NCBI GenBank assembly: GCA_963722255.1
Contig: CAVRJO010000001.1
Location: forward strand, 288,001-352,000
DNA from: Candidatus Babeliales bacterium
GTDB taxonomy: Bacteria > Babelota > Babeliae > Babelales > JANWKD01
Reading direction: 5' to 3'
Length of the DNA: 64,000 nt
The translations under genes and the position numbers were made by a program. The notes under the pieces are model-generated. The model was not told the DNA's origin. It worked only from the letters and a program-made list of their open reading frames with translations, and ran no database searches. Positions 915 through 62,443 of the stretch are shown here, piece by piece. Each line of letters begins with the position of its first letter. The stretch's first letter is position 1.

Positions 915-1685
915 ATGAAGAAATTATTACAAAGATTTGTTATGATTTTCATAGCAATAATTGCTATAAATCATTCATTACAAGCAATGAATCAAGAAAA
1001 GATCGTCCAAGACGCTCCTTTTAGCATGTATCAAATGCCTAAAAAAATTGCTAAAGGCTATACACAAGCCTACACAACTGCTTTTTCCTTAACATTTATT
1101 CATGAATTAGGTCACTGGATTGCAAATAAAGCAATCTTGGGCAGAAAAGGAATTATTTTTGTAAATCCTTTCCAAATTTTGCCTAGGGAGGGCGGTTTGA
1201 TGACGTATAAGACCCCTCTTAGTAAGTTTTTTGAAGAATATAAAAAATCTAATAACTTTACACAAGCACTCAAACAGTTTGCACAATTGAACGTATTTAA
1301 ACCAGGAATTGGCTATGGTCTTATGTGTTTAGCCGGTCCGTTATTTGGAGTTTTAGGTTCCCTTGGATTTTTAAAAGGCAGCACAATATACACTGAATAT
1401 AAACGTAATGGAAAATTGTTTGGTCCAGCAGTTGACTATGGCATGAAACAACCACTTTTTAACAAAGATCAAAACCTTATTTCACAAATAATACCATCTA
1501 TGGCTATAATACAGAATGTCATGAATTTATCACCTGCATCAACCCTTGATGGCGAAAAAGCTTTACGAGGATTTAATATAAAACTTGGTGAACTTACACG
1601 TGCTAAAATAACCTTAGCGATTGCTTCAACAAATATTGGTCTGGCTGGATTACTAGGCTATTTGATCTATAAAGCAAACAGCTAA
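915..1685 (+). CDS. Secreted/membrane M50 (site-2 protease-like) zinc metallopeptidase
   Basis: Signal peptide, HELGH zinc motif, AGP motif, NLSPASTLDG (NxxPxxxLDG) and hydrophobic segments. Confidence 0.7.
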   Translation: MKKLLQRFVMIFIAIIAINHSLQAMNQEKIVQDAPFSMYQMPKKIAKGYTQAYTTAFSLTFIHELGHWIANKAILGRKGIIFVNPFQILPREGGLMTYKTPLSKFFEEYKKSNNFTQALKQFAQLNVFKPGIGYGLMCLAGPLFGVLGSLGFLKGSTIYTEYKRNGKLFGPAVDYGMKQPLFNKDQNLISQIIPSMAIIQNVMNLSPASTLDGEKALRGFNIKLGELTRAKITLAIASTNIGLAGLLGYLIYKANS

Positions 1686-1745
1686 AAATTTATCATAGTT
1701 TAAATCAAAAAAATGGAGATTATTAAAAAAATAACTGTTTAAACA

Positions 1746-1780
1746 ATAACCCGTGTTCCAATCTCCTTTCACGGGTTATT
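1746..1780. terminator. Stem-loop downstream of the M50 gene
   Basis: aataacccgtg ... cacgggttatt perfect 11-bp inverted repeat. Confidence 0.45.
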
Positions 1781-1881
1781 CCAAATCGGGCAATAACTAT
1801 TGTTTAAAATCTATAATCGAAATAAACAATTAGCTCGCTTTAATCAATAAAAACCTTGCATAAAATATATAGTTTTTCTAT

Positions 1882-1910
1882 TTGACATTATCTTGTTTTA
1901 TAGTTATTCT
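1882..1910 (+). promoter_or_regulatory. sigma70-type promoter for 1952..2428
   Basis: TTGACA-17 nt-TATTCT; GGAGG RBS before 1952. Confidence 0.55.
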
Positions 1911-1951
1911 ATATTTAAAGGAGATTAAGGTAAAAATTTGGAGGTTTATAT

Positions 1952-2428
1952 ATGAAAAAATTATTAGTGTCTATATCAATCTTAACCTTTTGTATTACTC
2001 TTGGCTCAGCAGTTTTTGGAATGTTCCGTCCAAAAAAATCGATACTTTTAAATACTTATGCTATTTCATCTAATTTGAGGACAAATTCAACTATTTCCAA
2101 ACTGCTTACAAGCTCGGTTTATTCAATACGAGTTTCTTCGCCGATTAAAGAATCACCACAAACGCATCGTTCAGCTAAATTGCCGAAACTTGAACCTATT
2201 AAAAAAGATAGAATAACAGCTGCAAAAGAAGATTTGAAGAAGCTTTTAAACACACCAATTGAAAATCTTTACCAACAGCTCGAAATAGTCGTTTCACCTA
2301 CAACCAAGCTGGCCCTTAACTATTTTACGTATCTTACAACAAAAAATGATATTAAGACCTTATATGATCTAGGATTAAAGGTAAGCACTAAATTTAAAGA
2401 ATCGTTAAGAAAATTAAAGATGTTCTAA
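1952..2428 (+). CDS. Hypothetical secreted protein with a presequence-like mature N-terminus
   Basis: Strong RBS and an MKK-hydrophobic signal peptide, followed by MFRPKK... Confidence 0.7.
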   Translation: MKKLLVSISILTFCITLGSAVFGMFRPKKSILLNTYAISSNLRTNSTISKLLTSSVYSIRVSSPIKESPQTHRSAKLPKLEPIKKDRITAAKEDLKKLLNTPIENLYQQLEIVVSPTTKLALNYFTYLTTKNDIKTLYDLGLKVSTKFKESLRKLKMF

Positions 2429-2554
2429 GAATTTCATCTAAAATCAGTAATTATTCGCTTAAAGCCAATATTTTATTGCTATTTTGAATTAATATTTGTT
2501 ACTATTAATATTGGAAATGTATTAGTAAAAAATTATATTATTTCAGGAGACGCT

Positions 2555-2956: not shown

Positions 2957-2980
2957 AGATTACATAACTAGAATCTTAAA

Positions 2981-3044
2981 ATGGCAGCTCTTATTTCAAG
3001 AGCTGCCACAACTTTAAAAAGTCATCAATATTCATTTGTTGAGC
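2981..3044 (-). repeat. Diverged second copy of the rsmA 3' end plus terminator hairpin
   Basis: 58/61 nt identical to 3991..4051. Minus-strand frame reads AQQMNIDDFLKLWQLLK*. Confidence 0.9.
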
Positions 3045-3076
3045 ATAAAGTATTAATATTTCAAAGGAGACTTACC

Positions 3077-3976: not shown

Positions 3977-3988
3977 AAAATGACAATT

Positions 3989-4021
3989 TTATGGCAGCTC
4001 TTATTTCAAGAGTTGCCATAA
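3989..4021. terminator. Hairpin overlapping the rsmA stop, between convergent genes
   Basis: ttatggcagctctt-atttc-aagagttgccataa inverted repeat. Confidence 0.6.
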
Positions 4022-5860: not shown

Positions 5861-7171
5861 TTAGAAATTTAACTCAACACCCAACATAATCCGATTTGTT
5901 TTAACAGCTCCTTGCGCTGCAAAGAATTTTACAGGAACATCCCATTTAAATGAAACAATTGGAACAGACCAATGACACGACAAAATTTGAGTACAATCAA
6001 AAAAGGCATCTACCGTAACAAACTCTGCAGTCCATTGGGATTTCTTTCTATTTGCTTCTAAATTTACCGGTGGCATCTTTACTGCTCTTTCATCGGTCCA
6101 ATTATCCTTCATATGATGTGCAACTGTATAACCAATTTGAAGGCCAAAACCTTCACGAATATTTTCTAATCGTGCATAAGGTGAAACAATGAAGGTAAAT
6201 CCAGGATCAATACGTGCAAATCCTTGAACAGCACCATACAGTTGTTGTTCACTGACCACCGGAGAACCTTCTATACAAGGCTGTTGTCCTCCGATCACCG
6301 GCATGCGTTCTAATTTAGTTTTTGCAAAGCGTTTATTTACACGAGCATGCATTCCAACCTTCCAATCTTCTTTCAACTCAAACTCCGTGTCTATAGCTGT
6401 ATAAACTCCCCAATGACCATCTCCACCAAAAGGTATTGATGCGGGATTAGTAATTTTTCGAGTTAGTCCTGTTGGAAACATTACACCAACTTTCAAACCT
6501 GCGTCAATACGTCGAAATTTATAGAGATAGTCCCAAATATTGCCAACGCGTAGATAAAAATCAATATCAGAAAACCCTGTAGTATTAAAAACTGCAGCAT
6601 TCAAACCTAATTGTTTATTCATAACCCGACGCAATTCATCGAGCCGTGCTTGATCATCAGGCGAAATATGTAAAAGCGCAATACTCTCTCTACTTAGTTC
6701 AAAAGCATTACGTGAATAAAGATGCATAAAAAAGAATGAACCACCCATCCACAGGTTTCGCCAAATATGCTGATCCCATTGAAATGCAGCACCTTGCGTC
6801 TGAATTTTTCCTTCCATAATCCATAAAATATTTTGTTTTCTAAAGCGTGCTAAAGTAGGAAAAAGATCAAACGGATCAGGCTGCCCGATCGCAACAAGTG
6901 CATCTGCAACTCTGTTTTCATCATATAAGCCAAAAATGTCAAAAATCCCGATGTCATGTTCCTCATCCTCTTCATTAAATGCTTCATTGCCAACCATCAG
7001 CATTCCATCGAAGAATGCCGCTGAAGGACGATCCCAAGTCCTAGAGTAATTACGAGGATATTCCGGGAAAAATCTATTATCTTCTACCATTGAAAATACT
7101 TCTTGAAATAGCAAAACACTTATGAGTGAAACAACTATCCAAAAGCTACGATGATTTTTTTGCCTAAACAT
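5861..7171 (-). CDS. Putative outer-membrane beta-barrel protein
   Basis: Signal peptide, aromatic-rich alternating strands and C-terminal ...MLGVELNF beta-signal-like terminal Phe. Confidence 0.55.
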   Translation of the reverse strand: MFRQKNHRSFWIVVSLISVLLFQEVFSMVEDNRFFPEYPRNYSRTWDRPSAAFFDGMLMVGNEAFNEEDEEHDIGIFDIFGLYDENRVADALVAIGQPDPFDLFPTLARFRKQNILWIMEGKIQTQGAAFQWDQHIWRNLWMGGSFFFMHLYSRNAFELSRESIALLHISPDDQARLDELRRVMNKQLGLNAAVFNTTGFSDIDFYLRVGNIWDYLYKFRRIDAGLKVGVMFPTGLTRKITNPASIPFGGDGHWGVYTAIDTEFELKEDWKVGMHARVNKRFAKTKLERMPVIGGQQPCIEGSPVVSEQQLYGAVQGFARIDPGFTFIVSPYARLENIREGFGLQIGYTVAHHMKDNWTDERAVKMPPVNLEANRKKSQWTAEFVTVDAFFDCTQILSCHWSVPIVSFKWDVPVKFFAAQGAVKTNRIMLGVELNF

Positions 7172-10683: not shown

Positions 10684-12057
10684 ATGATTATATATTTTTG
10701 TTTTTTTTGCAGCATATATTTTTCAGTGATCGGATGCATGGAAATAGAAAAAGCCTCCGATTATGATCTATCTTCTGAAAGCTTTAGCATCGAAAACCAT
10801 TATAAAGGAATCTATACTAATCTTGGCGACATTTATAAGGATATACCCTTACTCATTGAAGCAGCACCTACAAATAAAAAAGCCCTTTTATCACTCATTA
10901 GTTATTTTGAAACCATTCGTTTCGTTTTTGATTTTTTTGCCTATCAAACACCGCATACGCAGGCTCTACTCACAAACATTCCCTGGCAACAATTTCCTCT
11001 TAAAGAGTTACAACAACAAACTCCGGAGACTCCCGATGAAAAATATTATTATGGCATTTTATATTATTGTAACCGTTTAAAAAAGTATCGAATAGGTACA
11101 AAAAATAGTAGAAAACGTGGATTATCTTTGCTAGAAGAATCTGCAAACGCCGGTTTTCTCAAAGCGATGCATTATCTTGGAACTATTGCTCGATTAGAAA
11201 AAAATAAAACTAAGGCTCTTTCTTGGAACAGTAAAGCAAGCGAAGAAGATTATATTCCTTCTATTTTTGAATTAGGTTATATGATGCTTAAAAATACCGA
11301 TGATCAACAAAAAATCTCGCAAGCAGTTTCATATATTACAAAAGCAGCTGATAGTAACTATGCAACAGCACACTTTTATTTGGCCCTGCTTTATGATTCT
11401 AAAACGCGTTTTACCTCATTTACCGATACTGCAAAAGCACAATTTCATTATAAACATGCTGCCAGCTTAGGTTGCTTGCAAGCTCAACACAATCTTGGCA
11501 TGATCTGTTTACAAGGAACAGAAAAAAATAATGATATCATAGAAGGATTGCATACTATTAATAAAGCGGCACGTTGTGGATATGCACCATCACAAACCTA
11601 CCTAGGATTGCTCTATTGTTCAGGAATATATCTAAATAGAAATCCTTTGAAAGGAATCGAACTTCTTACTCATGCAGCAGTTCAAGATAATAGTGCTGCA
11701 TGCTTTCATCTTGCTAAGATATATATATTAGGAGATATAACTAATCAAGATATCCCCAAGGGAATTAAATTACTCAATAAATCTGTTAATGCAAATAATA
11801 TACATGCTCAATATCAATTAGGTATTTTTTACCTACATGCTATACATGTAGATAAAAACACCAATAAAGCAGTTCAATTACTTTCAAAATCTGCCTCTAA
11901 AGGATATTGTAATGCACAATATGTATTAGGAAAACTTTACACCGAAGGAACAATTATCAAACAAGATAACGATCTCGGCAAAAAATTATTAAATGCTGCA
12001 GCTGAACAAAATTATCAAGAGGCCATTGAATACCTCAAAAATCATGAAATTACCTAA
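10684..12057 (+). CDS. Secreted Sel1-repeat protein
   Basis: Signal-like N-terminus and about 8 repeats of A(Q)xxLGxxY...G...AA. Confidence 0.85.
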   Translation: MIIYFCFFCSIYFSVIGCMEIEKASDYDLSSESFSIENHYKGIYTNLGDIYKDIPLLIEAAPTNKKALLSLISYFETIRFVFDFFAYQTPHTQALLTNIPWQQFPLKELQQQTPETPDEKYYYGILYYCNRLKKYRIGTKNSRKRGLSLLEESANAGFLKAMHYLGTIARLEKNKTKALSWNSKASEEDYIPSIFELGYMMLKNTDDQQKISQAVSYITKAADSNYATAHFYLALLYDSKTRFTSFTDTAKAQFHYKHAASLGCLQAQHNLGMICLQGTEKNNDIIEGLHTINKAARCGYAPSQTYLGLLYCSGIYLNRNPLKGIELLTHAAVQDNSAACFHLAKIYILGDITNQDIPKGIKLLNKSVNANNIHAQYQLGIFYLHAIHVDKNTNKAVQLLSKSASKGYCNAQYVLGKLYTEGTIIKQDNDLGKKLLNAAAEQNYQEAIEYLKNHEIT

Positions 12058-12965
12058 CGAGCCTTTTCACTAATATGCTTTCGATCATCTACAAAAATAA
12101 GTGATGCAGTTTTATAAAGTTCATCAATATAGGTATCAAAGACTTCTTTAAATTTAGGTTCACGCAAATAATCAACAATTTCCCGATACCGCTCTTCCAA
12201 CGTAAGTAATCTACGTCCTTTTTTATCTTTCAAGCGATAAATTTCATAGCCATTGGAAACCCTTTGTGGTTTTGAAATTGCACCAATTTCCATAAAAGTA
12301 ATAAATTTTTTATCTTCAGCTAAATCGTTTTCATTAACCCATAACGGGACGCCCCACATTACATCAAGCTCATTATGTTCAATCTGATCCATGAGGTAAG
12401 AGCATTGTTCTTCTTGTTTAATAGGATCTCGCGAAAAGAAGGGCACAAACGCGACTTCCACTTGAAAATGAGCTTCTTCATATTTAGGATTTTTAGCATA
12501 TTCGTTTTCAACATCTTGCAATGCAATAATGATACGTGCCTTTACTTTAAGATCAATCATTGTAGCATTGGCGCCCATCTTTTGTAGTTTAAATCTGCCT
12601 TCTTCGGGAGTTAATCCTGCGCCTTCAAAAATATGTTCAACTTCTTTATCGCCAATATTATGATTCTTTTTAATAGAACGAATATAACGATCGGCGTAAT
12701 CATCAATAGGAATTCTATGCTTTAATGCATCTTGGTAAATCAACTCTTCAATAATTAAATCTTCAATAGCCGGCTTGCGCCCATCAATTCCAACACGATC
12801 CAATTCCGATTGACATATAAGATATCTTCGTTCCGGTCCATCAACTATAACCACAACTTTATCAATTGGAATAAGATTTGCCTCTTGAGTCGCATATGTT
12901 CTTGGCAACATAAAAAATAGACTCATATATAAAAATAAGCTAAATACGCTCATGATTTTTTTCAT
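12054..12965 (-). CDS. SurA-like periplasmic chaperone
   Basis: Signal peptide, IDKVVVIV, LIIEELIYQDA and a parvulin-like GAISKP...GYEIYRL. Confidence 0.65.
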   Translation of the reverse strand: MKKIMSVFSLFLYMSLFFMLPRTYATQEANLIPIDKVVVIVDGPERRYLICQSELDRVGIDGRKPAIEDLIIEELIYQDALKHRIPIDDYADRYIRSIKKNHNIGDKEVEHIFEGAGLTPEEGRFKLQKMGANATMIDLKVKARIIIALQDVENEYAKNPKYEEAHFQVEVAFVPFFSRDPIKQEEQCSYLMDQIEHNELDVMWGVPLWVNENDLAEDKKFITFMEIGAISKPQRVSNGYEIYRLKDKKGRRLLTLEERYREIVDYLREPKFKEVFDTYIDELYKTASLIFVDDRKHISEKAR

Positions 12966-13042: not shown

Positions 13043-14104
13043 TTAAGCTGCCTTCATAGGAGCAGGAGCAGGTTTCTTTTCTTCCTGTTCTTTTTGCATT
13101 GCTTCTGCAGCTTTTTGCGCTTTTTCTTCTTGCGCTTTTTTTTCTCGTTCAAAATACTCTTTATTGGTAACCGCTTTGTACTCTTTTTTAAGTTTATCGA
13201 TTTCCTTGGTAAGAACTTCAGCGCCTTTTTGTTGTTTTAAAAGGTTTTCAATACCCGGCTTAACTTGTTCATAAGGAACATAGCTCGGTTCTGTTTTCTT
13301 AACTGCCTTTACAACAGCAAATGAGTTACCATTAACGGTAATAAGCTCAACGGTTGGGAACTTTTTCAATTCAATCAGTTTAGAACGAATTGCGCCGTCA
13401 ACATCATAACTTTGGCTGTTAACTTCACCAAGATCTTTAACGGTGAGATTAGATTCTTTAGCAATTCCATCAAAGTTCGTTTTTGCATCTTTTACTTTAG
13501 CAAAGAAGGCTTCTGCCGCATCTTTATTGTCAAACATTACCGCTTTAGCCTCGACACCACCAGGAGCAGCCATTAATTGTGGAATTGAATTCTTATTTTC
13601 TTCGTAATATGCTTTTATTTCTGCATCCGTTACAACAATTGGATGTTTTTCTTGGAAATGTTTTACATTTAAACTGCGACGAGCATACTTCATAATTTTA
13701 TCTAAATCATCCTTGTATGCAGGACTTTCAGCAATTTTATTTTTTGCTGCCCATTCTTCAAGAACAGCCTCATTAACTAAACTTTCAAAAATTTGTTCAT
13801 TTGCACCAGGCATAAACTCAATTATAGAAGCATAATTTGGTTGAGCTTCAAGAAGTTCATTTTTATAATTTTGAAAATCCTTCGTTGTAAGTCTTGGAAC
13901 TTTTTCATCATAGAGGGTTAATAAGATTTCGCCACCCGCTACTCCTGTTCCAGTAGCCGGTTTAGCAGCACCGGTTAATGCTTCTGCAGAACGCGTGGCC
14001 GTCACCTCTTTTTTTTCTTCTTGTCCTTTAAAAAAATCGCAATTGGGTAACAGAATTAAAGCTCCCACTAAGAATGCGCTACTAAAAACAGTAACTTTAT
14101 TCAT
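13043..14104 (-). CDS. PpiC-type peptidyl-prolyl isomerase (PrsA/SurA-like lipoprotein)
   Basis: Lipobox-like LPNC; VTDAEIKAYYEEN, FDGIAKE, DLG and YEQVKPGIENLL. Confidence 0.75.
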   Translation of the reverse strand: MNKVTVFSSAFLVGALILLPNCDFFKGQEEKKEVTATRSAEALTGAAKPATGTGVAGGEILLTLYDEKVPRLTTKDFQNYKNELLEAQPNYASIIEFMPGANEQIFESLVNEAVLEEWAAKNKIAESPAYKDDLDKIMKYARRSLNVKHFQEKHPIVVTDAEIKAYYEENKNSIPQLMAAPGGVEAKAVMFDNKDAAEAFFAKVKDAKTNFDGIAKESNLTVKDLGEVNSQSYDVDGAIRSKLIELKKFPTVELITVNGNSFAVVKAVKKTEPSYVPYEQVKPGIENLLKQQKGAEVLTKEIDKLKKEYKAVTNKEYFEREKKAQEEKAQKAAEAMQKEQEEKKPAPAPMKAA

Positions 14105-14865: not shown

Positions 14866-15304
14866 AATAAAGCAGCAAACGAAGAAGAATATTACTGAGT
14901 AAACCAGCCACAACATCATCAAGTAGAATACCAGAAGCACCCGGCAATTTTTCCATCCATCCTACTACGCCAAATTTACTAATATCAAAAAATCGAAAGA
15001 GTATACAACCACCTAGTAAGGATATCGGGCAAAGAGGCACAGCACAAAACGTAACAAGAGAACCTAGAACCTCATCGATAACGATTTCAGATGGATCTTC
15101 ATCATGATAGCTGATCAGAATCTTTTGAATACAAATATGTGCAATCACATAGCATAAACCCATGAGTGCTATATAGATATAGTTGGATGATTTTGGTAAC
15201 AAGCTTAACATACCTACTGTAGCAATCGTGGCTACAGTTCCCGATGCTGGAAAATAACCAAGTGGCCCCACTGTAGCATACCAGGAATACAGCTTAGCGT
15301 TCAT
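14855..15304 (-). CDS. pgpA: Phosphatidylglycerophosphatase A
   Basis: GYFPASGT, DPSEIVIDEV, FRFFDISK and GILLDDVVAG. Confidence 0.92.
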   Translation of the reverse strand: MNAKLYSWYATVGPLGYFPASGTVATIATVGMLSLLPKSSNYIYIALMGLCYVIAHICIQKILISYHDEDPSEIVIDEVLGSLVTFCAVPLCPISLLGGCILFRFFDISKFGVVGWMEKLPGASGILLDDVVAGLLSNILLRLLLYYVF

Positions 15305-15776
15305 CAGAAAAAAGCCCTGTCAACATCATACCAAGAATACCGGTAACAATAACGAGATCCGCTATATTAAAAACAGGCCACGAAAATGATTTATAAGAAA
15401 GTAAAATAAAATCAACAACGCCACCATAGAGTAATCGATCTAAAAGATTTGAAAAAGCACCTGCGCATACCATGAGTTCACACATCACACCAAAATTGTT
15501 ATGATACCGGACAAATGAATATAAACAAAACGCCATAATACACACTGCTATAAGACCCGTCAAAATGCTAAAAACAAGTGTACTTTCTGAGTGAAACATT
15601 GACCAGGATATACCTCGATTATACTGCAAGGTAAACATGATATAATCATTCACAACATAAGGCTCTTGTAGAGAGCGCATGATATATTTGGTAATTCTAT
15701 CAACACTAAAGATGGAAAGAACTAAGGCGCTATACCAAAAAAGAATACGATTCGATCGAGAATGTGTAATGTTCAT
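15294..15776 (-). CDS. lspA: Lipoprotein signal peptidase II
   Basis: DRITK, NRGISW, GAFSNLLDR, VVDFI and PVFNIAD. Confidence 0.93.
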   Translation of the reverse strand: MNITHSRSNRILFWYSALVLSIFSVDRITKYIMRSLQEPYVVNDYIMFTLQYNRGISWSMFHSESTLVFSILTGLIAVCIMAFCLYSFVRYHNNFGVMCELMVCAGAFSNLLDRLLYGGVVDFILLSYKSFSWPVFNIADLVIVTGILGMMLTGLFSDER

Positions 15777-26865: not shown

Positions 26866-29703
26866 ATGCAGTTAAAATTATTATATTATGCATTCATTGC
26901 GTGTTCGCTCGCAATAAACATCGATCTGCATGCAATGAAGCGTAAACATGAAGAAGAGAAAGAAAAGGAAAAAGGATCTGAAGAACAAATTCTTGGAAAA
27001 GAGAAAAAACGAAAGTTAGAGCAAGAGCAACAACTTGTGCAAGGAATATTGCAAGAAAAAAGCTTAGAAGAACGTGCTCAAAATTACCTTACTACCCTTA
27101 TGCAAATAAAAGATGAACAAGCTCTTAACATAATGCTTGAACAGCATTTCTATGAACCATTAGAACTAAAAGATTATCTTACAAACCTAATAAACACACC
27201 AAATATAGTGGGTGAAACCCCTTTGCATGATGCCAAAAATAAATACCAAGTGCATGCTCTTTTTGCAATGGGTGCAAATCCAAATATTCGATCACATATT
27301 CTTCACTTCCCATTTGATACAATGCTCTTTAAAGGAAATATTGAAGCAGCAGAAGCAGTTCTTGAAATTTTGAAGGTAGAACCTCTTTTAGCTTTGAATT
27401 TGACAATTTTTACTACACTTCATTATGCAATTATGAATAATGCACCATCACTTGTACGAAGAATCCTTGCTAATCCCCAAAATCAAGATAATGTTGCAGA
27501 TGTTCTAGAAGAAAGAAACATTGAACCTGAGGCAATAGCTCTTATTGCAGCCGCTCTTTATTGCCCAGATTGCATTAAAGATCTTATTGCACATGGTGGT
27601 AATATAAACCTAATGGACTTAAATGGAATACCATTAATAGTTCACGCAGCTAGAACACAACCTCCTGCAATCATAGAAATGCTCATACAAAATGGAGCTG
27701 ATCCAGCTGCCGTTGATACGGATGACCTAAATATCCTTGCTTACGCAGTAGATAGCAATAACTATGATCTTATCACCTATTTAGTAGATACTAAAAAATT
27801 TAACGTTAATGTAGATCCTCAATCACCGGATTATGAAGGTGAATTCCATGAATTTCTAGCTCCCTTAGGCATAGCAGTAGAAAATTACCTTGTTGAAGAA
27901 AATCCATCACAGCTTACTAAGATAGAAGAGATTATACATTTTTTAGTTCAACGAGGTGCAAGAGTTAACACTACCCGATCTCTCTATCAAACACCACTTT
28001 TTATTAAATTAGTAAAAAAAGCTACTGAAAACACAAGAAGTTTTAATTTAGTTCGTTATTTTGTAGAACATGCTCATGCAGATGTCAATATCATTTCATT
28101 TGAAGAAAGTGAAATCAATCTTAGCAATCCTAAAGAAGAGTACCCATTAGCTGCAGCAATTTTTACTGATTATGATCACACTAAAGAAATCAATCAAATT
28201 AATGAAAATCTTAATTATGAACTTATAAACTATCTTATAGCCCATGGAGCAAAAATCAGACAACGTGATTTGGATATCATAGGTCAATTTGGCAATCAAA
28301 CGTTACGAGAAGCTCTAGCTAAAGCAGCTATTTTTGATGAACAAGAGTTTAATAAAAACATTGCAGGGCAAGAAAAAAAACTTGAAACTCCAATGGAGAT
28401 TGAAGAGACCCCGGAAGAATTAAAATCACCCAAAGAGGAATTTGAAGAAGTTTCACGCATCTATCAACCGCTTAGTTTAAAGTATCAAATAACTAAACAA
28501 TTTATTACAAATTTTTTACAAGCAGATCAAGAAGAAACTATCGCAATGCAAGAAGCTTATCAGAAATTGATTCCTGAGATGAAAGAGTATATACGCTTAT
28601 TAGTAAATGAAAAAAACAGTATGAATCTCACCTTATTGCATAATGCAACAACTGCTCAGGACGTTGAAAAACTCTTACTTCTTGGAGCTGATCCTGCTAT
28701 TGTGTCAAAAACCGGTCAAAATGCATTCTCAAGCATGCTGATACATGGTAATAATGCAGCAGCTGAAAAATTATTAGAACTTAACCCTGATGAATCTCTT
28801 ATCTTTTTTGATAAAGGCGGTTTATCGACTCTTCATTATGCTCTCATTGCTCATGCTGTATCTATAGCAAGAAGGATTTTGGATAATCCTGCAAACAAGG
28901 AAATAATTAAAACAACAATAAATGAATTAGTTGGGAGAGATCCCGGCGTAACTCCATTGATATTAGCAACACTTTATTGCCCTGAACTCATTGAACTGCT
29001 TATTCAAAACGGTGCTGAACCCAATTTGCATAATATAGATGGAGTATCTCCTCTTTTATTTGCTGCAAATAAACAACCCGTAGAATTTATTAAACTCTTA
29101 ATCAAATATGGAGCAAATTTAGAAGCTACTAATCATATTGGCGATGATGCCCTTTATTATGCAGTAGCTGGAAAGAATATTCCTCTTATTAGCTATTTAG
29201 TGCAAGAGCTAAAATTTGATCCCAATATACCTAATGATGATGAAGAGCCTACAACTGCATTTGAATATGCTATTCAAAATATTACAGATCCTGAATATCA
29301 TAAAACTATTGAAGAGTTATTAAAATATGGCGGTGATACGAATACAAAAAAAACTAACTTAACCATTATTATTCCAAAAGCATATGCGTATACCACTCTT
29401 ATAAAAGAGTTCATTCATCATGGTGCAGATGTAAATTACACTGATGGAATACGCTATCCGCTAGCTGAGGCGCTATTTCTCTATGATGAAAATGTCAATG
29501 ATTATGTCGAATTACGAAATCAATTTAATTATGATCTTATTGCTTACCTTATTGAAAAAGGAGCACTTATTGAACAAAAACATAAAGACATCATTATGAA
29601 GAGCCAAAATAAAGAGCTTATTAATCTCATTAAGCCCGCTAAAATTTATTATGAACACCTCAAAGAGGCAAAAAGAATTGAACACCAAGAAAAAAATGAC
29701 TAA
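26866..29703 (+). CDS. Secreted ankyrin-repeat protein with internal duplication
   Basis: GETPLHDA, TTLHYAI, LIQNGADP and GVSPLLFAA repeats in two homologous halves. Confidence 0.9.
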   Translation: MQLKLLYYAFIACSLAINIDLHAMKRKHEEEKEKEKGSEEQILGKEKKRKLEQEQQLVQGILQEKSLEERAQNYLTTLMQIKDEQALNIMLEQHFYEPLELKDYLTNLINTPNIVGETPLHDAKNKYQVHALFAMGANPNIRSHILHFPFDTMLFKGNIEAAEAVLEILKVEPLLALNLTIFTTLHYAIMNNAPSLVRRILANPQNQDNVADVLEERNIEPEAIALIAAALYCPDCIKDLIAHGGNINLMDLNGIPLIVHAARTQPPAIIEMLIQNGADPAAVDTDDLNILAYAVDSNNYDLITYLVDTKKFNVNVDPQSPDYEGEFHEFLAPLGIAVENYLVEENPSQLTKIEEIIHFLVQRGARVNTTRSLYQTPLFIKLVKKATENTRSFNLVRYFVEHAHADVNIISFEESEINLSNPKEEYPLAAAIFTDYDHTKEINQINENLNYELINYLIAHGAKIRQRDLDIIGQFGNQTLREALAKAAIFDEQEFNKNIAGQEKKLETPMEIEETPEELKSPKEEFEEVSRIYQPLSLKYQITKQFITNFLQADQEETIAMQEAYQKLIPEMKEYIRLLVNEKNSMNLTLLHNATTAQDVEKLLLLGADPAIVSKTGQNAFSSMLIHGNNAAAEKLLELNPDESLIFFDKGGLSTLHYALIAHAVSIARRILDNPANKEIIKTTINELVGRDPGVTPLILATLYCPELIELLIQNGAEPNLHNIDGVSPLLFAANKQPVEFIKLLIKYGANLEATNHIGDDALYYAVAGKNIPLISYLVQELKFDPNIPNDDEEPTTAFEYAIQNITDPEYHKTIEELLKYGGDTNTKKTNLTIIIPKAYAYTTLIKEFIHHGADVNYTDGIRYPLAEALFLYDENVNDYVELRNQFNYDLIAYLIEKGALIEQKHKDIIMKSQNKELINLIKPAKIYYEHLKEAKRIEHQEKND

Positions 29704-34015: not shown

Positions 34016-38142
<4,127 letters not shown>

Positions 38143-38146
38143 CTGA

Positions 38147-42478
<4,332 letters not shown>

Positions 42479-45523: not shown

Positions 45524-45600
45524 TGGCAGGCCAGGAGGGATTCGAACCCCCAACCCGCAGATTTGGAGTCTGCCGCTCTACCAATTCGAGCTACTGGCCT
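45524..45600 (-). tRNA. tRNA-Trp(CCA)
   Basis: Anticodon loop CT-CCA-AA; sits upstream of secE. Confidence 0.95.
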
Positions 45601-45610
45601 CCGAAATATA

Positions 45611-45766
45611 TTATTTGGCTTCTTTATGAGGATTATGCTTACGACAGCGGAAGCAGAATTTTTTCAATTTTAAAGAGCCCACTGTTCTTTTTCCAACAAC
45701 TTGCGTATAATTACGCTCTTTGCATTCCTCACACGATAGATGAGTTGTCACTCTATTTTTTGCCAT
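45611..45766 (-). CDS. rpmG: 50S ribosomal protein L33 (Zn-binding type), below the ORF-track cutoff
   Basis: Manual translation MAKNRVTTHLSCEECKERNYTQVVGKRTVGSLKLKKFCFRCRKHNPHKEAK*. Confidence 0.93.
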   Translation of the reverse strand: MAKNRVTTHLSCEECKERNYTQVVGKRTVGSLKLKKFCFRCRKHNPHKEAK

Positions 45767-45804
45767 AAATCACCAAATTAATAAACTTTCTTTGTAGGTT
45801 TTCC

Positions 45805-45879
<75 letters not shown>

Positions 45880-45972
45880 TAAAATGCCTGTACACATGAG
45901 TATGTTATAGAATAAATAAAAAAAAAGCAAAACACAACTCATTTTTACCTATAAGCTATTATTTTTTTTATA

Positions 45973-46047
45973 TGGAGCTGGCGATTGGATTTGAACCAAC
46001 GACCTACTGATTACAAATCAGTTGCTCTACCACTGAGCTACGCCAGC
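45973..46047 (-). tRNA. tRNA-Thr(TGT)
   Basis: Anticodon loop TT-TGT-AA, encoded CCA. Confidence 0.95.
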
Positions 46048-46082
46048 AAAAAAATCAGTACTTATTACAAGTAATAAATACT

Positions 46083-46158
46083 TGGAGCGGGAAACGGGGC
46101 TCGAACCCGCAACCTACAGCTTGGAAGGCTGTCGCTCTACCAATTGAGCTATTCCCGC
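46083..46158 (-). tRNA. tRNA-Gly(TCC)
   Basis: Anticodon loop CT-TCC-AA, encoded CCA. Confidence 0.95.
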
Positions 46159-46299
46159 ATGCTATTTCAACAAGTCTATGAAGTTTTTTGCAATACATCT
46201 TACTTCTTTTTGAGTAGATAGTCCATCTTCGCTTTCGGCTATCTTGGACCACCCCTTCACTCATGGCAAAGACTGACGAAATTGCTAAGCAACGAAGAC

Positions 46300-46385
46300 T
46301 GGTGGCGAGAGAAGGATTCGAACCTTCGAAGACATAAGCCAACGGATTTACAGTCCGTCCCCTTTGACCGCTCGGGAATCTCGCC
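46300..46385 (-). tRNA. tRNA-Tyr(GTA)
   Basis: Anticodon loop CT-GTA-AA, long variable arm, encoded CCA. Confidence 0.95.
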
Positions 46386-46684: not shown

Positions 46685-47128
46685 ATGAAAAAAACATTAA
46701 ATTTTTTATGTGCAGCGGCTTTACTTACTTTTGTTCAACTACAATCAATGGAGCACAATGAAACATTAGAGAATTATAAAACTAAGGGAAAATTCGCAAC
46801 ACTACAAGAAATAATAGCTAGTTATGAAGGTCGCGAGAATAAACATGCTATGTGGTGGGAGATGTACAAGCATGTACCTTGCATTGAAAATGCAGAAATA
46901 CCACAAACCTATTTATTACATGAAGCAATCTCACATAATGATTATGATGAAGTAGAAACTCTAATTAACACGCATGGTGATACTATTATTGTCGCAACTT
47001 TTCAGAGAAGTACCTACATACATGGTTTTCAAGGCGCTACGTATAACCTCGCTGCAACATCAACCAAAGAAATAAAAGCATTAATCACATTGCATGCATT
47101 CAATAAAAATAAAGATAAATTAAATTAA
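46685..47128 (+). CDS. Small secreted protein with one ankyrin-like repeat
   Basis: Signal peptide ...LQS|ME; LLHEAISHNDYDEVETLI. Confidence 0.65.
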   Translation: MKKTLNFLCAAALLTFVQLQSMEHNETLENYKTKGKFATLQEIIASYEGRENKHAMWWEMYKHVPCIENAEIPQTYLLHEAISHNDYDEVETLINTHGDTIIVATFQRSTYIHGFQGATYNLAATSTKEIKALITLHAFNKNKDKLN

Positions 47129-50506: not shown

Positions 50507-51274
50507 TTATTCAGAATAATGTTTATAGCAAGTAGCTAATAATTTAATATATACTAGAAACAGAGAAGAATTCCATCCCCAAAAATTTAGGCCATGCAAA
50601 ATTCGATACGCACTCGTATTAACAGGTTCTCCCAAATTATCATATTCAATAAAATTTAAGAGTTGTGCGATTCTATCGCCATCTGAATCAGAACGTCCAG
50701 GAACAAGCTGAAAAATATTCCCTATATAATTTTTATAATTATAGCTTATACATAATTCTTGCGTTAACCGAGGTAAAAAATTTTGTTTCTTTAAAATATA
50801 ATGAAAAGCACCTGCTGCAATAAAACCTAACATCGGCCCAGCTAATAAACACACGACACTTGTTGAAGGAACTAAGTCATTGCCATTTTGAATTATTTTA
50901 GTAACGCCAGCCTGTGCATTTAACCCAATCAAATGAATGCCAGGCACAGGATTTTCTATAGGATTTGTTGAACCCAAATAAATCGATAGTGGCATATCAT
51001 GACAACACTTTAATACGAGAGCATGTCCTAATTCGTGAAAAAACATATTAATAAATGTACCCGCATAAGAAATTGCTGCAGCTAAAGCAACTTGCCCAGC
51101 AAATTTACCAAATCGTTTTACTTGCTCATTCTTTGACTGAGGTGCAGAGCCAGTTAAATTGCAATATAAAGACTCACCAATTTTTGGAATAAGACAAAAA
51201 TCCTGGATAACAGAATCCATCCCAATAAGAGAAATATTTTGAAACAATAAGAGCAGCAATAGATATTTTTTCAT
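50507..51274 (-). CDS. Secreted/membrane M50-family metallopeptidase
   Basis: Signal peptide, HELGH, LLAGP and QLVPGRSDSDG. Confidence 0.7.
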   Translation of the reverse strand: MKKYLLLLLLFQNISLIGMDSVIQDFCLIPKIGESLYCNLTGSAPQSKNEQVKRFGKFAGQVALAAAISYAGTFINMFFHELGHALVLKCCHDMPLSIYLGSTNPIENPVPGIHLIGLNAQAGVTKIIQNGNDLVPSTSVVCLLAGPMLGFIAAGAFHYILKKQNFLPRLTQELCISYNYKNYIGNIFQLVPGRSDSDGDRIAQLLNFIEYDNLGEPVNTSAYRILHGLNFWGWNSSLFLVYIKLLATCYKHYSE

Positions 51275-54355: not shown

Positions 54356-55129
54356 ATGAAATATTACAAAAGTGCAATTTATAGCATCGTATTTTCAATC
54401 ACTTCATTCACTTTTTCGATGGAAAATATCGTTTCCTTATATGATTGCTTGGCATTATCTCCACAGCTACAATAAACAATGTTGAAAAAGCTTTTAATAA
54501 TTTTTGTCAAAATCAAAGCAGTAAAACAATAAAACAGATCTTAAAAGAAGAATCTACATCAACAATCATAGAGTCTTACATCATCTTAAGTTCGCCTATT
54601 TGGAAAGAGATATATGACAAAACTTATAATCTTGATTGTTTTTATCATGAAGCCTCATCTGCTTATTCTGAAGAACAACTTGATCTTTATCGTACGCTTC
54701 AAGCTCCAAAAAATGCCAGCAAATCTGAACTATTAAAATGTTATATACTACAAACCAAACACAAATAGTCCTTATAAATTTCCAGAAAATTCTCAAGAGG
54801 CTAAAGAAGCAGAAGAAAGATACGAAGAGATTATATACAGCTATGTACTACTAAGTAATAAGGCTTTACGCGCCATATATGATAAAGACAATAATAAATT
54901 TCGGTTTCTAGTTGCGCTCAAAAAACATGATGCTTTTAAAAGAATAAAAAAATGTGCTAAAGTTAAAGACCAACGAAGAGGAAATTATCGATCACTTTCG
55001 TTAAATTTGACAGATCTAAAAGAAACTCTAATTCTCGATTTGGTTAAATCTAACCGGTTTAACCAAATAAAAAAGCTTATTGATGAACTCGACAATAAAG
55101 AACTCAACCAGAATGAAAAAAAAGACTGA
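54356..55129 (+). CDS. Secreted tandem J-domain-like protein (two frameshifts: error or pseudogene)
   Basis: Manual join: MKYYKSAIYSIVFSITSFTFS|MENIVSLYD-LLGIISTAT ... DLYRTLQAPKNASKSEL ... SPYKFP ... EERYEEIIYSYVLLSNKALRAIYD. Confidence 0.6.
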
Positions 55130-55365: not shown

Positions 55366-56112
55366 ATGAAAAATAATTTCAAAAAATATTTAATTTTACT
55401 CCTAGCTTCGTGCGGAATATTAAATGCCATGGAATATAAAGAAGATTATTACGCCCTTCTCAATCTTTCTCAAAATGCCTCGCCAATAGAAATAACAGAA
55501 TCTTTAAATAATCTTTATAAAGCTGCATACCCGAAGATAGTAATCAAAGAATCAAGAGAATCAGCGCAAAATGAGTTTTTCAGGAAAAGCGTAATAGCAT
55601 ACATGGTGTTAAGCAATCCTGAACTTAAAGAAGCTTATGACCAAAATTCAGCATGCTTTAATGAAGAACCATTCCAGTATTATTCTCTTTTAAATGTCCC
55701 CTTAGAGATCCCTCAAAATAAAACAAATAACAATAAAACACCCCCGGCAGCTCTTGATGAAAAAAATGTATATGATCTTTTTACCTCAATTCAACCAAAA
55801 ACTATTTCTGAAGCATTACATAATTGCGGCAATGATGCCGAATTATATGCTTATGATCTGTTAAGCGATAATGCCTTACGTTCGTTATATCATCAGAATC
55901 CAACGCCCTCAAAATTTGCTAAAAGTTTAGACGAATATCGTAAAACATTAGTTCCAAATAGCTCTTATATATCCCAAGAAGAAAAAGAATCACCATTATC
56001 TAAAAAAAAATCAAAAAAGAAGATAAAATTATCGCATAGGTTGACTTTATCTGGAATAGTTTCAAAACTAAAACGAACTCCAAGTTATCGTTCAAACACA
56101 GGAAAAATATAA
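55366..56112 (+). CDS. Secreted J-domain-like protein
   Basis: Signal peptide; DYYALLNLSQNAS...AYMVLSNPELKEAYDQ; second degenerate unit AYDLLSDNALRSLY. Confidence 0.7.
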   Translation: MKNNFKKYLILLLASCGILNAMEYKEDYYALLNLSQNASPIEITESLNNLYKAAYPKIVIKESRESAQNEFFRKSVIAYMVLSNPELKEAYDQNSACFNEEPFQYYSLLNVPLEIPQNKTNNNKTPPAALDEKNVYDLFTSIQPKTISEALHNCGNDAELYAYDLLSDNALRSLYHQNPTPSKFAKSLDEYRKTLVPNSSYISQEEKESPLSKKKSKKKIKLSHRLTLSGIVSKLKRTPSYRSNTGKI

Positions 56113-58552: not shown

Positions 58553-61500
58553 GAGCTCGCTCTTGTATTTCACAATTTTGTGCTCTAACTCTTCAATCAT
58601 TTTTTCTTGTTCCTCAGTAAACACGATGCTTATATCAGTTCCAGCATCACTCAGATAATAACGCAAGCTAATTAATTGTCTCTTTTTAAGAGCATCGAGA
58701 GCATCTTTTACAATTTTCAACGGTTGTTTGAGTCCCATACAGTTATAAAATGGTTCTCCTTTGGTCTGCTTTAAAAGTTGATCAGAAGCATTAAGAATTT
58801 GATCAATTAATAAATTAGGCAGTTGATTAATTACAACAAAATCGCCCTCAGAGCCTTTTGGATTTGAACATAAAGCATAAAAACCATCTCTGAATGCTTT
58901 GCTAAATTCAATTTGTTTAATTAAATCTTTTAACTGCTCCGATTCTTTCTTTTTTAATTTTCGAAAACCACGCTTTTTATGCATTAATTTTTTAAACTTC
59001 CTGTCGTTGTAGTCTTGATCTCCTAATGAATCCATAACTTCGTAATATATTTTTCCATCTTTACTTATTTGTTTTATAGCGATCCAATGTGTAAAGGTTC
59101 GATAATATTCGGATTCTTCGCTATACCTCCCATTTTGATCCCAACTAGTATCTTCGTCAGCTAAGCTTACTAGATAGGCCCTTTCAAAATCTTTACCCTT
59201 ATCAATATCATCATGGATACGAGCAATTTGATTAATAACAGTTACATCTAAACCATACTTTCCTGCACAATATCTGCCAACATCAGGTATAAATATGACA
59301 GAATCCTCAGAAGAATATTCTTTATGTAATTGAGCAATTTCTTCTTCATTCAACCATTGAACGTCACCATCATCGCGCTTTTTCTTAATCTTCTTTTTAC
59401 AGTTCTTAAGAAATGATTCCAAATTAATTGTTATTTTATTTACTGAGTTCAATGCATTATATAATGCATGATACCCACATTCAGCATTATTTTGCCTTTT
59501 TACTTCTACATGATTAAAGGTAATAGCATCTTGCATTTTTTTTCCAGAATTTCTCGTTGTAACAGGAACAGAAATATTTGATTCTGATATATATGGCACA
59601 GCTCTTTCATTATCCTGAAGTAAAAGTTTAATCAAGTTGTACCAAACACGCTGCTCTTTTTTTTGATCCTGCAAATTTTTATTCATAGCGGTTGGTGCAA
59701 TAAATTTAAAGGGGCCTTCGCTTTGCAATAAAGCATTATCCTTAACACATTCGGCATACAAACTATTTTGGGACTTAACCATTAGTTGCTGCTGATCACA
59801 ATAAATCGGAAATCTTCTCTTATAAAAAAAATAACACCATGCAGCTATTTTCGTTTTAAAGTCATATGAAGACCATACTTCATTAATATTTTTTTCCTTA
59901 TATTCTTCAAGGTCATGTTGACTTTTTATTGTTGCAGCCTCTACTTGCTGAATAACTTTACTATTCTCTTCTAATTTCCTTCTATAAGGAGCATGCTCGC
60001 GCTCAAGCATATAAATAAACCAAGCATTAAAGATATTTTGAATTTTTTGAGCATCTAATTCATCGTTTTTTTTATAAAACTTTTTAACAATTTTGAAAAA
60101 TTCCTTATGGTTTATTTGGAGCAATTCTTGATAATAACTATAAATCTCATCTGACAAAGGTGTATCTTTAAATAAAATTTCTAAATAATTACCACCATAA
60201 AAATCACGTAATATATTTAATTTCTCTTTTTTTAATAACTTCTTTTGAATTGCATCTTCATATTTTTTTATTTTTTGTTTACACATGTCATAAGATTCAT
60301 CAATGCTGCTTATCTCTTTACGGCAAAGCTTCTGCTGCTGTTCAAATTCTTTTTGCTCATCCTCTATTAAATCTGCCTTATCATTCTTTGAAAATAAGGA
60401 AAGATATCCCCTAGCTTTTACAATCTCATCTTGCACATGTTTATTAACTCGAATTCTTTCAGTACACGCAGCTAATTTCTCTTGCCATACTTCAAACTTC
60501 TCGCGCACTTCAATCTTTTTTTCTCTTAATATCCTTTGCTCTTCAAAAAGACTATTTAATGATTGCGATTCTAAGCTACCATCAGCTAATTTCTTTTTGC
60601 TCTTCAAAATAGAATTGGCTATATCCTCTTTTTCTTAAAATACCATTAAGAGCTTCCAATTTTTTTTCTATAGAAAGACTATTATCTTCTAGCTTCTTAA
60701 TCTCAAGTTGTACCTTATTTTCTGACTCATAATGTGCTGCTATAGCCTGAGAAATACGTTTGGCATCTTCCTGATTTATTTCGATATCAAGAACCATTTT
60801 TTTACTTTTTTCAAAACTCTCTTTTGCTTCTTTTTTTTCTTTTTTAATAAGAACTTTTTGCCTTTTAGGCACGCCATTCTTACGAGCATTAGCCAATTCC
60901 ATTCGATATTTTTCTAGATGCTCTTGAGCAGCCTTCATTTCATTTCTTAACCTTAACAAGTTAGGCTGCGATTCGTTACAAAGATCACGAAGCTTACCAA
61001 GCATAACCTTTTTACTCTCTACATCCATTTTCATTGAACTATTTTTAAACTCATTACAAAGCAGATCAATTTGCTTTTTTGTGTCCTCACATTTTTTTTC
61101 AAGTTTATTCTTCTTTCTTATTAAGAAAGAATCATCTTCAACTCCGGCACATTTTTCTTCAAAAGTATTAGGATTTTTATGAATACCAGCTTTAAGTACT
61201 ACTTGCGTCTTTTCATAAAATAATGAACCTATCTTAGATAAATAGGAATAAAGTTGATCTTCTAATTTCGGTATTTGACGATGATTAACTGCATCTTGTG
61301 CAGCTGAATCGGCCGCAGCCGTTAAATTCCGTATCAGAAATAAACTTTGGTTAACAGACCACAGTAAAGGATTTATACTCGTCTTACCATGATTTTTTAA
61401 AAGGGACACTACTACCGACTTCAATTGAGAAGGAACCTTTTCTTGAGCAATTCGTGATATCTTTGTAGGAGCCATATCCTGCTCTATTGCCTTTTCAATA

Positions 61501-62443
61501 TCAGCACCAATTCCTCCTAAAAGCTTTCGAATCCATCCATATTTTTCAATAAGTGGAAGAGCATTTCTTACAACAAAAGAAGGGTTCAAAAACATATACG
61601 CTAAACCAGAGATATCCGGCTTGCTAGCTATTTCTTCAAATATTTTTGTTCCAGCAGCTACAGGAGTAAACGCTTTTTTTATCCGCTCAGCACGTTCATC
61701 AGCTCTTTTATTTTGTTCTAAGATTTCTCGGTCAGTTTTTACAGTGGGTGGAACAAATTCATACATAATATCTTCAACAATGGAAGAAAACTTTTTATCT
61801 TTACACGAAGTAACAGTACGAAAACGATTTACCGTATCCTTACCATTAAAAACAGAAAAAAGAAGCTGCGTATTATATGATAATTTTTCCATAGCATGAA
61901 CTGCATTCTGAGCATCATTACGTTTTAGGGCGTCATTAAGTTCCCTATAATTACAAGATTCTAAATAATCAAATGCTCTTGCAATTTTTTTACCAACAGA
62001 AAGTGTTTGAGGCATCAAAGCATTGATCGCTCTATAAGGGGTTGACGAATTCTTTTCATGCGAGTCCAGCAAAGCCGTTAAAACTTTATTAGTTTTTAAA
62101 GAAATTGATTCACTTTGAGTAGAGCTAAGCGCTGTAATTTGAGCGACAACTTTTGAGAAAATATTTCTTGTTGTCTCAAGTTGTTCAAGCCCAACTTCTT
62201 TTTTTTTAGAAAATTATGATCTCTATAATCAGCCAAATATCTTGAAAGCCCACACATATTATCAATAAGGCTTTGAACATCAGATTTAGCTTCATTAGAA
62301 ATTGTATCGAGCCAAGCCAAATGTTTTTGTACTGGTGTTTGCTCCACAGCATGTTCCATTGAATACAGATCAAAAACAAATGCAAAACAAATGATAACTA
62401 CAGTACCAAATATTTTTTTTGATAGGTTTTTACTATTTTTCAT
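58520..62443 (-). CDS. Large (about 1300 aa) secreted coiled-coil protein with a C-terminal Josephin-like cysteine protease; split by two frameshifts
   Basis: ORFs 62096..62443, 60582..62072 and 58520..60607 join at A-runs (about 62200 and 60630). Signal peptide ...DLYS|ME; Q-x5-C / HW / D motifs. Confidence 0.6.

Follow-up and report, generated by a model that had tools for sequence, protein, structure and literature searches.

We present here evidence that, in a parasitic bacterium of the phylum Dependentiae (TM6), the residue predicted to follow the signal peptide of exported proteins is strikingly often a methionine. The stretch of DNA in which the pattern was noticed, hereafter the window, comprises 64,000 nucleotides (bases 288001-352000 of contig 1, CAVRJO010000001.1) of the assembly GCA_963722255.1 of a Candidatus Babeliales bacterium, whose genome spans 1.62 Mb on two contigs with 34% G+C and is 93%-complete. 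The Dependentiae are a phylum of protist parasites that occurs widely but has hardly been brought into culture, and the source lineage belongs to the order Babeliales, as do all 20 of the nearest genomes, which are uniformly small (0.8-1.5 Mb). In our interpretation, ordinary Sec-type signal peptides would be cut by signal peptidase I (LepB) in such a way that the first mature residue in Dependentiae/Babeliales is often Met, usually followed by Glu, or else by Asn, Gln or Asp, with a bias that appears to act at the amino-acid level. We put at about 0.5 the probability of such an 'M-rule', acting at the protein level on signal peptidase I substrates and linked to proteins directed at the host.

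Open reading frames (ORFs) were called over the whole genome, of which 1846 were kept once overlaps had been removed, and 663 of their N-termini were flagged as signal-peptide-like by charge and hydrophobicity alone. Candidate cleavage sites were assigned by our own implementation of the von Heijne (-3,-1) rule, on which all cleavage positions given here rest. Met occupied the +1 position at 230 of 1622 candidate sites (14.2%) as against 123 of 5008 neighbouring positions (2.5%; odds ratio 6.6, p=2e-62), and 217 of the 663 signal-peptide-like proteins had at least one candidate site with a +1 Met. An earlier note on this DNA, which had proposed the pattern from ten window proteins, had held that a +1 Met frequency equal to background would speak against it; the background frequency is in fact 1.7%, and chance is excluded as the source of the pattern. 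Without any cleavage rule being presupposed, Met was the last residue ahead of the first charge past the hydrophobic core in 133/663 proteins, an 11.6-fold enrichment. Met frequency also rose to 5-7% at residues 19-24 of the 663 signal-peptide-like proteins, while over those residues the other 955 proteins stayed at ~2%. When 450 kb of Escherichia coli K-12 was passed through the identical pipeline, no enrichment was found (Met at 2/169 candidate +1 positions and 11/471 neighbours; odds ratio 0.5).

The ten junctions claimed for the window were all reproduced on translation, and each showed the n-, h- and c-regions of a signal peptide with a small -1 residue and then Met. The proteins have a basic start (mostly MKK or MKN) followed by a hydrophobic stretch, as is typical of Sec/signal peptidase I substrates, in which the h-region has about 8-15 residues. 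The positions given in the earlier note are those of the gene starts, with each Met codon 54-84 bases deeper in the gene. Its count of seven mature starts with Met-Glu, Met-Asp or Met-Asn among the ten also holds. The sites are as follows, with the predicted cut marked by an arrow.

915-989 (+): 24-residue signal peptide ending in SLQA, Met codon 987-989; 256-residue protein with no Pfam family; junction LQA↓MNQ, with GGAG before the first ATG.
1952-2023 (+): 23-residue signal peptide ending in AVFG, Met codon 2021-2023; 158-residue orphan; junction VFG↓MFR.
7088-7171 (-): 27-residue signal peptide ending in EVFS, Met codon 7090-7088; 436-residue member of a Dependentiae-wide family (gene 5861-7171); junction VFS↓MVE, mature start MVEDNRFF.
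10684-10740 (+): 18-residue signal peptide ending in VIGC, Met codon 10738-10740; Sel1-repeat protein; junction IGC↓MEI, or alternatively a lipobox with Cys at +1.
26866-26937 (+): 23-residue signal peptide ending in DLHA, Met codon 26935-26937; 945-residue ankyrin-repeat protein; junction LHA↓MKR, mature start MKRKHEEE.
46685-46750 (+): 21-residue signal peptide ending in QLQS, Met codon 46748-46750; 147-residue orphan; junction LQS↓MEH.
51218-51274 (-): 18-residue signal peptide ending in SLIG, Met codon 51220-51218; 255-residue protein; junction LIG↓MDS.
54356-54421 (+): 21-residue signal peptide ending in FTFS, Met codon 54419-54421; frame open for 39 codons only; junction TFS↓MEN.
55366-55431 (+): 21-residue signal peptide ending in ILNA, Met codon 55429-55431; 248-residue J-domain protein; junction LNA↓MEY, mature start MEYKEDYY.
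62357-62443 (-): 28-residue signal peptide ending in DLYS, Met codon 62359-62357; 115-residue orphan; junction LYS↓MEH.

Pfam recognised ankyrin repeats (26866), Sel1 repeats (10684) and a J domain (55366) among these ten proteins, with no significant match for the other seven, and a homologue search with the orphan at 46685 returned only itself. In the J-domain protein, positions 1-63 of the DnaJ profile align with residues 27-92, such that the J domain begins 5 residues past the Met. At 54356-54768, another frame runs on for ~107 codons downstream of the MEN frame and ends in a J-domain-like stretch (…DLYRTLQAPKNASKSELLKCY…); the locus probably represents a single gene split by a frameshift, or a pseudogene.

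The sequence around the Met conforms closely to a signal peptidase I site. Ala, Gly, Ser, Cys or Thr directly precedes the Met in 127/133 of the proteins in which Met stands before the first charge, compared to 222/530 where that residue is not Met, and the -3 residue is Ala, Val, Ser, Thr, Ile, Leu, Gly or Cys in 117 of the 133, in keeping with the von Heijne rule of small uncharged residues at -1 and -3 and no Pro at +1. In the strict set the -1 residue is Ala in 41%, Ser in 22%, Gly in 17%, Cys in 13% and Thr in 7%, position -3 is held by Leu, Ser, Ile, Ala or Val, position -2 is often Phe, Tyr or Asn, and signal peptides are mostly 18-23 residues long. The residue after the Met (n=217) is Glu in 92 cases, Asn in 25, Gln in 19, Lys in 14 and Asp in 11; counted by site, 156/230 +1 Met residues in this genome (68%) are followed by Glu, Asn, Gln or Asp, the dipeptides of NatB-type N-termini. 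Met and Glu are coupled: the first charged residue is Glu in 101/133 proteins after Met compared to 125/530 after other residues, and the native second residue is Glu in only 56/808 non-exported proteins. The 30 residues after the Met are also more acidic (Asp plus Glu 17.5% vs 12.1% in other exported proteins) and more hydrophilic. Basic clusters resembling nuclear localisation signals (NLS) were only weakly enriched there (12/112 vs 16/342, p=0.04); such short clusters follow the Met in many Met-type proteins of this genome and its relatives, with mature starts that include MKRKHEEE…, MEERPPKRK… and MEEEKSKRPRAK…. Cys precedes the Met at 23/217 sites, of which just 2 fit even a relaxed lipobox, [LVI][ASTVI][GAS]C, one of them being the window gene at 10684; signal peptidase I thus seems to accept Cys as the small residue at -1 with unusual frequency. 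A type IV prepilin leader is short and basic and is cut after Gly, with the hydrophobic segment downstream of the cut and Glu at +5; here that segment precedes the cut, and a true prepilin-like N-terminus (…HG↓FSLIEF…) is present elsewhere in this genome.

Several trivial sources of the pattern were considered and rejected. Paralogy does not account for it: BLAST clustering of the mature parts of all 217 proteins gave 174 groups, and 154 of these held a single protein. Nor does a shared or mobile signal-peptide cassette: only 34 weak DNA similarities were found between unrelated genes, nearly all near the E-value cut-off, alongside 15 within families. There was likewise no sign of a Kozak-like or other nucleotide signal, with -1 codons and Glu codons at +2 matching genome usage (-1 Ser, 40 TCN to 21 AGY) and upstream bases that are T-rich. 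Since -1 codon use equals genome usage, the bias resides in the protein and not in the DNA.

The earlier note had suggested that the pattern may be lineage-wide, and we found it to be strong in three of the five Babeliales families sampled and weaker in two. Relatives were sampled rather than analysed whole, with 400 kb taken from each of four genomes (G001, G003, G020 and G014) and 200 kb from each of two (G024 and G051); as kin are not independent, the per-genome p-values overstate. The 40 higher-quality genomes drawn from the phylum all fall in this one order. Counts of Met at candidate +1 positions were as follows.

G001, same genus: 44/386, odds ratio 5.4.
G003, same family: 44/342, odds ratio 6.3.
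G020, another family: 51/409, odds ratio 6.1.
G014, another family: 35/384, odds ratio 4.2.
G024, family f18: 17/204, odds ratio 3.0, p=0.002.
G051, family f6: 20/233, odds ratio 2.2, p=0.01.

In the first four of these genomes, 59-69% of the +1 Met residues are followed by Glu, Asn, Gln or Asp (24-30 of 35-51 sites each). Five of the +1 Met cases in G051 are paralogues of one S↓MYA family. In the LepB neighbourhoods of 29 other Dependentiae, which appear to be dominated by housekeeping genes, Met stood before the first charge in just 9/200 signal-peptide-like proteins.

Which proteins carry the Met? The samples of the four relatives yielded 169 Met-type proteins, plus 421 further signal-peptide-like ones that had a candidate site, and we ran hmmscan against Pfam (E<=1e-5) on the 150 longest of 165 Met-type proteins (<=900 residues) and on a random 150 of 408 others. 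By tallies hand-counted from two long outputs, ankyrin, WD40 (some with Skp1-POZ) or leucine-rich repeats were found in 33/150 Met-type proteins and 9/150 others (p=9e-5), any other Pfam family in 18/150 and 50/150 (p=1.5e-5), and no Pfam family in 99/150 and 91/150 (not significant). After weighting by sampling fractions, Met-type proteins make up ~60% of the exported repeat proteins; among exported orphans the share is 31%, and among those with other Pfam domains 13%. This supports the earlier note in so far as +1 Met is much commoner in likely host-directed proteins than in enzymes or housekeeping proteins that are exported. Met-type proteins with recognised Pfam domains include thioredoxins, Amidase_3 proteins and a GH18 chitinase, and in several of the 18 Met-type proteins of other families that are membrane proteins (H+-pyrophosphatase, penicillin-binding proteins, EamA) the Met is probably coincidental. 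The non-Met exported set includes periplasmic housekeeping proteins (DegP-like, Tsp-like, FKBP, SecD and AmiC-like). Reciprocal-best-hit orthologues, the more conserved subset, are less often Met-type (5/35, 6/34, 5/18 and 13/70) compared to 217/663 overall. Tandem arrays of Met-type exported WD40 beta-propellers, some with Skp1-POZ, occur in G001 (L049:617-7679) and G020 (L083:7573-10902), with eukaryote-like ubiquitin-ligase-adaptor architectures. G020 also encodes signal-peptide proteins with pretoxin-HINT and Ntox37 domains, as well as a DXD glycosyltransferase whose match to the TcdA/TcdB-type catalytic domain is weak (L090:8363-9634, L088:3164-4936 and L079:8709-9737); judged by their domains, these exported proteins appear polymorphic-toxin-like and glycosylating-toxin-like.

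The evidence on conservation of the Met, examined in 202 homologue pairs that reach the mature N-terminus, is mixed. In 93 pairs the signal peptide of the partner had a Met no more than two residues from the site, and in 86 the partner had a signal peptide without Met; it had another N-terminus in 19, and in 4 it started at or beyond the Met (exactly at the aligned Met in 3). The family of gene 5861-7171, by contrast, largely keeps the Met across the order. It has no Pfam domain and 146 homologues in the protein database, the named members of which are Dependentiae/Babeliales except for one labelled otherwise; a related-locus search with the same gene confirmed no relative, unlike the protein database. 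Among the 117 listed homologues that bear a conserved D-N-R-F motif, Met stands three residues before the motif in 87, and Ala, Ser or Gly precedes that position in 107/113. Public gene calls, which are independent of our own ORF calling, include the signal peptide in 113/117.

The amino-acid-level bias, its occurrence in ~170 unrelated families, the order-wide conservation in one family and the concentration in repeat proteins and orphans together argue for a selected property of the mature N-terminus, one that matters after Sec export. What that property does is a matter of graded conjecture. In eukaryotes, N-termini in which Met precedes Glu, Asp, Asn or Gln are normal ones, of the NatB class, and do not act as Arg/N-degrons. 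Typical bacterial mature N-termini (Asp, Glu, Gln, Asn, Lys, Leu or Phe) would be N-degrons in a eukaryotic cytosol, and in the explanation we prefer, LepB cleavage would give host-directed proteins a Met-acidic or Met-amide N-terminus that this cytosol treats as normal and non-destabilising. That an N-degron-silent, NatB-like end is what matters in the host cytosol we advance only tentatively. A second variant, in which A↓M-E would be read by a sorting or secretion step after Sec export, we consider unlikely. More broadly, the regenerated Met-Glu, Met-Asp, Met-Asn or Met-Gln end might let Sec-exported effectors pass as fresh host proteins, or might be their ticket across the outer membrane into the host, a pair of ideas that we hold possible, though at well under even odds. 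The results above show the anatomy of the signal peptides, the enrichment with its phylogenetic spread and class dependence, the lack of an internal ribosome-binding site and the independence from paralogy; we infer cleavage before the Met, arrival in the host cytosol and the role of the Met-Glu end there. That the Met goes with repeat proteins and orphans agrees with published proposals of host delivery, and so points to a role after Sec export: signal-peptide-bearing ankyrin proteins have been proposed to be released into the host (passages in PMC4378268 and PMC6561590), and the signal-peptide passages of the latter report signal peptides on 44% of the coding sequences of Chromulinavorax and on 78% of its ankyrin proteins.

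Other explanations place the cause elsewhere. The earlier note had allowed for an alternative start, and internal translation initiation (giving secreted and non-secreted isoforms), or starts mis-called in AT-rich DNA, would be suggested by the in-frame ATG that lies ~20 codons past the first ATG in every case, and by the 4/117 public gene calls of the 5861-7171 family that begin at the internal Met. This organism, however, makes use of Shine-Dalgarno (SD) sequences: its 16S rRNA has CCUCC at the end, and AGGA and GGAG show 5.8-5.9-fold enrichment ahead of starts. A start at the internal ATG would call for a ribosome-binding site 5-12 nt before it. In the 217 genes, an SD-like motif lies upstream of the first ATG in 65%, whereas the +1 Met codon has one in just 2.3%, fewer than the 10.8% of random internal ATGs. 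By eye, such motifs precede 9/10 first ATGs in the window and 0/10 of the Met codons. Residues encoded by GTG or TTG are not enriched at the Met position, and the upstream segments have all of the n-, h- and c-regions, with a small residue at both -1 and -3. The alternative start was therefore not borne out, and we regard it as very improbable. The Met could instead be the relic of an ancestral start codon, left functionless at the junction when a cytosolic-type or horizontally acquired protein gained its signal peptide by upstream extension of the frame. The enrichment in proteins with normally cytosolic domains (ankyrin, WD40, Sel1, DnaJ and AAA) would fit such an origin, and the distance from the Met to the J domain of protein 55366, which we take to resemble that of a native (canonical) DnaJ-type N-terminus, is suggestive. 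Partners in 3/202 homologue pairs do begin at the aligned Met, as do the four public calls just mentioned, and the Met is no more conserved in position than its neighbours (128 ungapped pairs). Against this, those 3 partners are few beside the 179 that carry a signal peptide too; these divergences are therefore younger than the signal peptides, and a neutral Met would be expected to have been lost since, yet it is kept in 87/117 of the order-wide 5861-7171 family. A relic would also not predict the Met-Glu coupling (101/133, against Glu second in 56/808 native N-termini), nor a Met placed exactly at +1 of a small-x-small site in 127/133; no trace of a former ribosome-binding site is left (2.3%), and exported GNAT, macro and histidine-phosphatase proteins lack the Met. 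We thus consider the relic unlikely.

A general preference of the Babeliales LepB is a further candidate, with Met at P1' and Glu at P2' making the best-cleaved junction whatever the destination of the protein. Such a lineage-specific bias would have a counterpart in the Q-rule of Bacteroidetes (as treated in parts of PMC5837995 and PMC10653852), and it would accommodate the Met of exported thioredoxins, Amidase_3 proteins, the GH18 chitinase and the conserved 5861-7171 family, as well as the duplication of LepB in many Babeliales. It sits poorly with the strong class dependence (~60% of repeat proteins vs 13% of other Pfam families), since signal-peptide junctions evolve fast and housekeeping proteins should also have reached the LepB optimum, and the strength of the rule shows no relation to the number of LepB copies. 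We think this account improbable.

Several observations also weigh against the interpretation that we prefer, a Met selected at the mature N-terminus of host-directed proteins. The predicted cleavage directly before the Met is placed there by the (-3,-1) rule, and a cleavage-site weight matrix trained without supervision on non-Met proteins collapsed onto the h-region; its sites were meaningless, and nothing here draws on them. Several exported proteins with cytosolic-type domains that are plausibly host-directed, namely GNAT acetyltransferases, a macro-domain protein, histidine phosphatases and superoxide dismutases, lack the Met, which speaks against a universal export tag. In 128 ungapped homologue pairs the +1 Met was identical in 30%, compared to 27-41% for its neighbours, such that many individual sites turn over; likewise, same-genus orthologue pairs in which both members have a signal peptide comprised 8 with Met in both, 5 with Met only in the first and 6 with Met only in the second. 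The rule is weak in G024 and G051, where the share followed by Glu, Asn, Gln or Asp falls to 25-29% (5/17 and 5/20). No dedicated modifying enzyme came to light in this 93%-complete genome, which gave one methionine aminopeptidase match plus degenerate fragments and no RimJ-type GNAT (Acetyltransf_3). Finally, Ala, Ser, Gly and Thr would also avoid the Arg/N-degron, and the N-degron hypothesis alone therefore does not explain why the residue should be Met.

Comparison with known systems helps to place the pattern. Its closest analogue is the Bacteroidetes Q-rule, in which Gln occupies +1 of signal peptidase I substrates and is cyclised to pyroglutamate by glutaminyl cyclase (parts of PMC5837995 and PMC10653852). 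Both are phylum-specific, genome-wide biases of the +1 residue after Sec/signal peptidase I cleavage that run across many unrelated substrates and were found by proteome statistics, and in both the proposed effect is on the fate of the mature N-terminus and not on export itself. Here, however, the residue is Met (mostly Met-Glu) and Gln is not enriched (4.5% at candidate +1 positions vs 4.4% background); the rule covers about one third of candidates rather than most, depends on protein class, varies between families, and has no modifying enzyme found for it. A second likeness is to NatB substrates, whose dipeptide classes match those at 156 of the 230 +1 Met sites. NatB acts co-translationally, on ribosomes, whereas the N-termini here would arise by bacterial proteolysis; the acetylation consensus to which the earlier note had drawn attention is thus a resemblance and not a shown mechanism, and the same is true of stabilisation. 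The Plasmodium export element (PEXEL), RxL↓xE/Q/D, is cut in the endoplasmic reticulum, and the new N-terminus is acetylated and needed for export into the host cell. There too, cleavage in a secretory pathway exposes a defined N-terminus with Glu, Gln or Asp second on host-destined proteins, as we suppose here, but PEXEL is processed by an aspartic protease of a eukaryotic parasite, lies downstream of the signal peptide and has no homology to the Met sites. The lipobox of lipoproteins, with the invariant +1 Cys of signal peptidase II, shares the succession of a signal peptide and a fixed +1 residue, and LspA is encoded in the window; as only 2 of the 23 Cys-Met sites fit it, Cys elsewhere would be the small -1 residue. 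In keeping with the earlier note, which knew of no previous account, a literature search on Dependentiae/TM6 signal peptides, +1 Met, effectors and N-degrons found none. PMC4378268 reports the abundance of signal peptides and contains neither 'methionine' nor 'cleavage', the signal-peptide and secretion passages of PMC6561590 do not mention the residue after the signal peptide, and the parts of PMC5837995 on the Q-rule mention neither methionine nor TM6. The M-rule is thus undescribed as far as our literature searches reach.

The genome encodes signal peptidase I, as expected where Sec-type signal peptides are cut, in two copies (LepB, Peptidase_S26; E=1e-34 and 1e-32).

C2:137881-138756 (-): signal peptidase I.
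C2:701907-702773 (+): signal peptidase I.

LepB is duplicated in many Babeliales (G003, G004, G005, G018, G037, G049 and G050), with copies often in tandem. Copy number was tried as a correlate and rejected: genomes with one copy (G014 and G051) and two (this genome, G000, and G024) do not sort by the strength of the rule.

The window also holds exported proteins that lack the Met. The earlier note had contrasted a SurA-like protein with the junction TYA↓TQE; the junction was confirmed, but the SurA-like label found no support in Pfam, and the PPIC-type domain belongs to the neighbouring gene.

12054-12965 (-): exported protein with RTYA↓TQE and no +1 Met; no Pfam family found.
13043-14104 (-): exported housekeeping protein with a lipoprotein-type N-terminus (ending LLPNC), a PPIC-type peptidyl-prolyl isomerase domain and no +1 Met.
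15294-15776 (-): signal peptidase II gene (LspA; Peptidase_A8, E=2e-29).

The LspA gene lies two genes upstream of the lipoprotein-type isomerase, which in turn adjoins the exported protein at 12054-12965. Many housekeeping genes are broken in the window assembly, and some ORFs are therefore truncated, with C-termini hit more than the N-terminal pattern. Polynucleotide-phosphorylase-like pieces split over many short ORFs (31509-33599, -) and pieces of RNA polymerase beta/beta', including a fragment with NADFDGD (34016-39775, -), were recognised by eye; such chopped essential genes suggest frequent assembly frameshifts or real decay. Five clustered tRNA genes (Trp, Thr, Thr, Gly and Tyr; 45524-46385, -) adjoin secE-nusG-like and ribosomal-protein genes.

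To conclude, Dependentiae genomes give at least a third of their genes to signal-peptide proteins, and an N-terminal Met mark would allow the host-directed subset among them to be enriched from sequence (~60% vs ~13%). Next to the Q-rule, the M-rule would be only the second case of a phylum with its own rule for the residue that signal-peptide cleavage exposes, and the variation in its strength from family to family constitutes a natural comparative experiment. It would make testable, in the few cultured strains, the question of whether an effector N-terminus made by the bacterium's own signal peptidase controls export or survival in the eukaryotic cytosol. If true, the effectors of an entire candidate phylum would be recognisable by a tag of just two residues.

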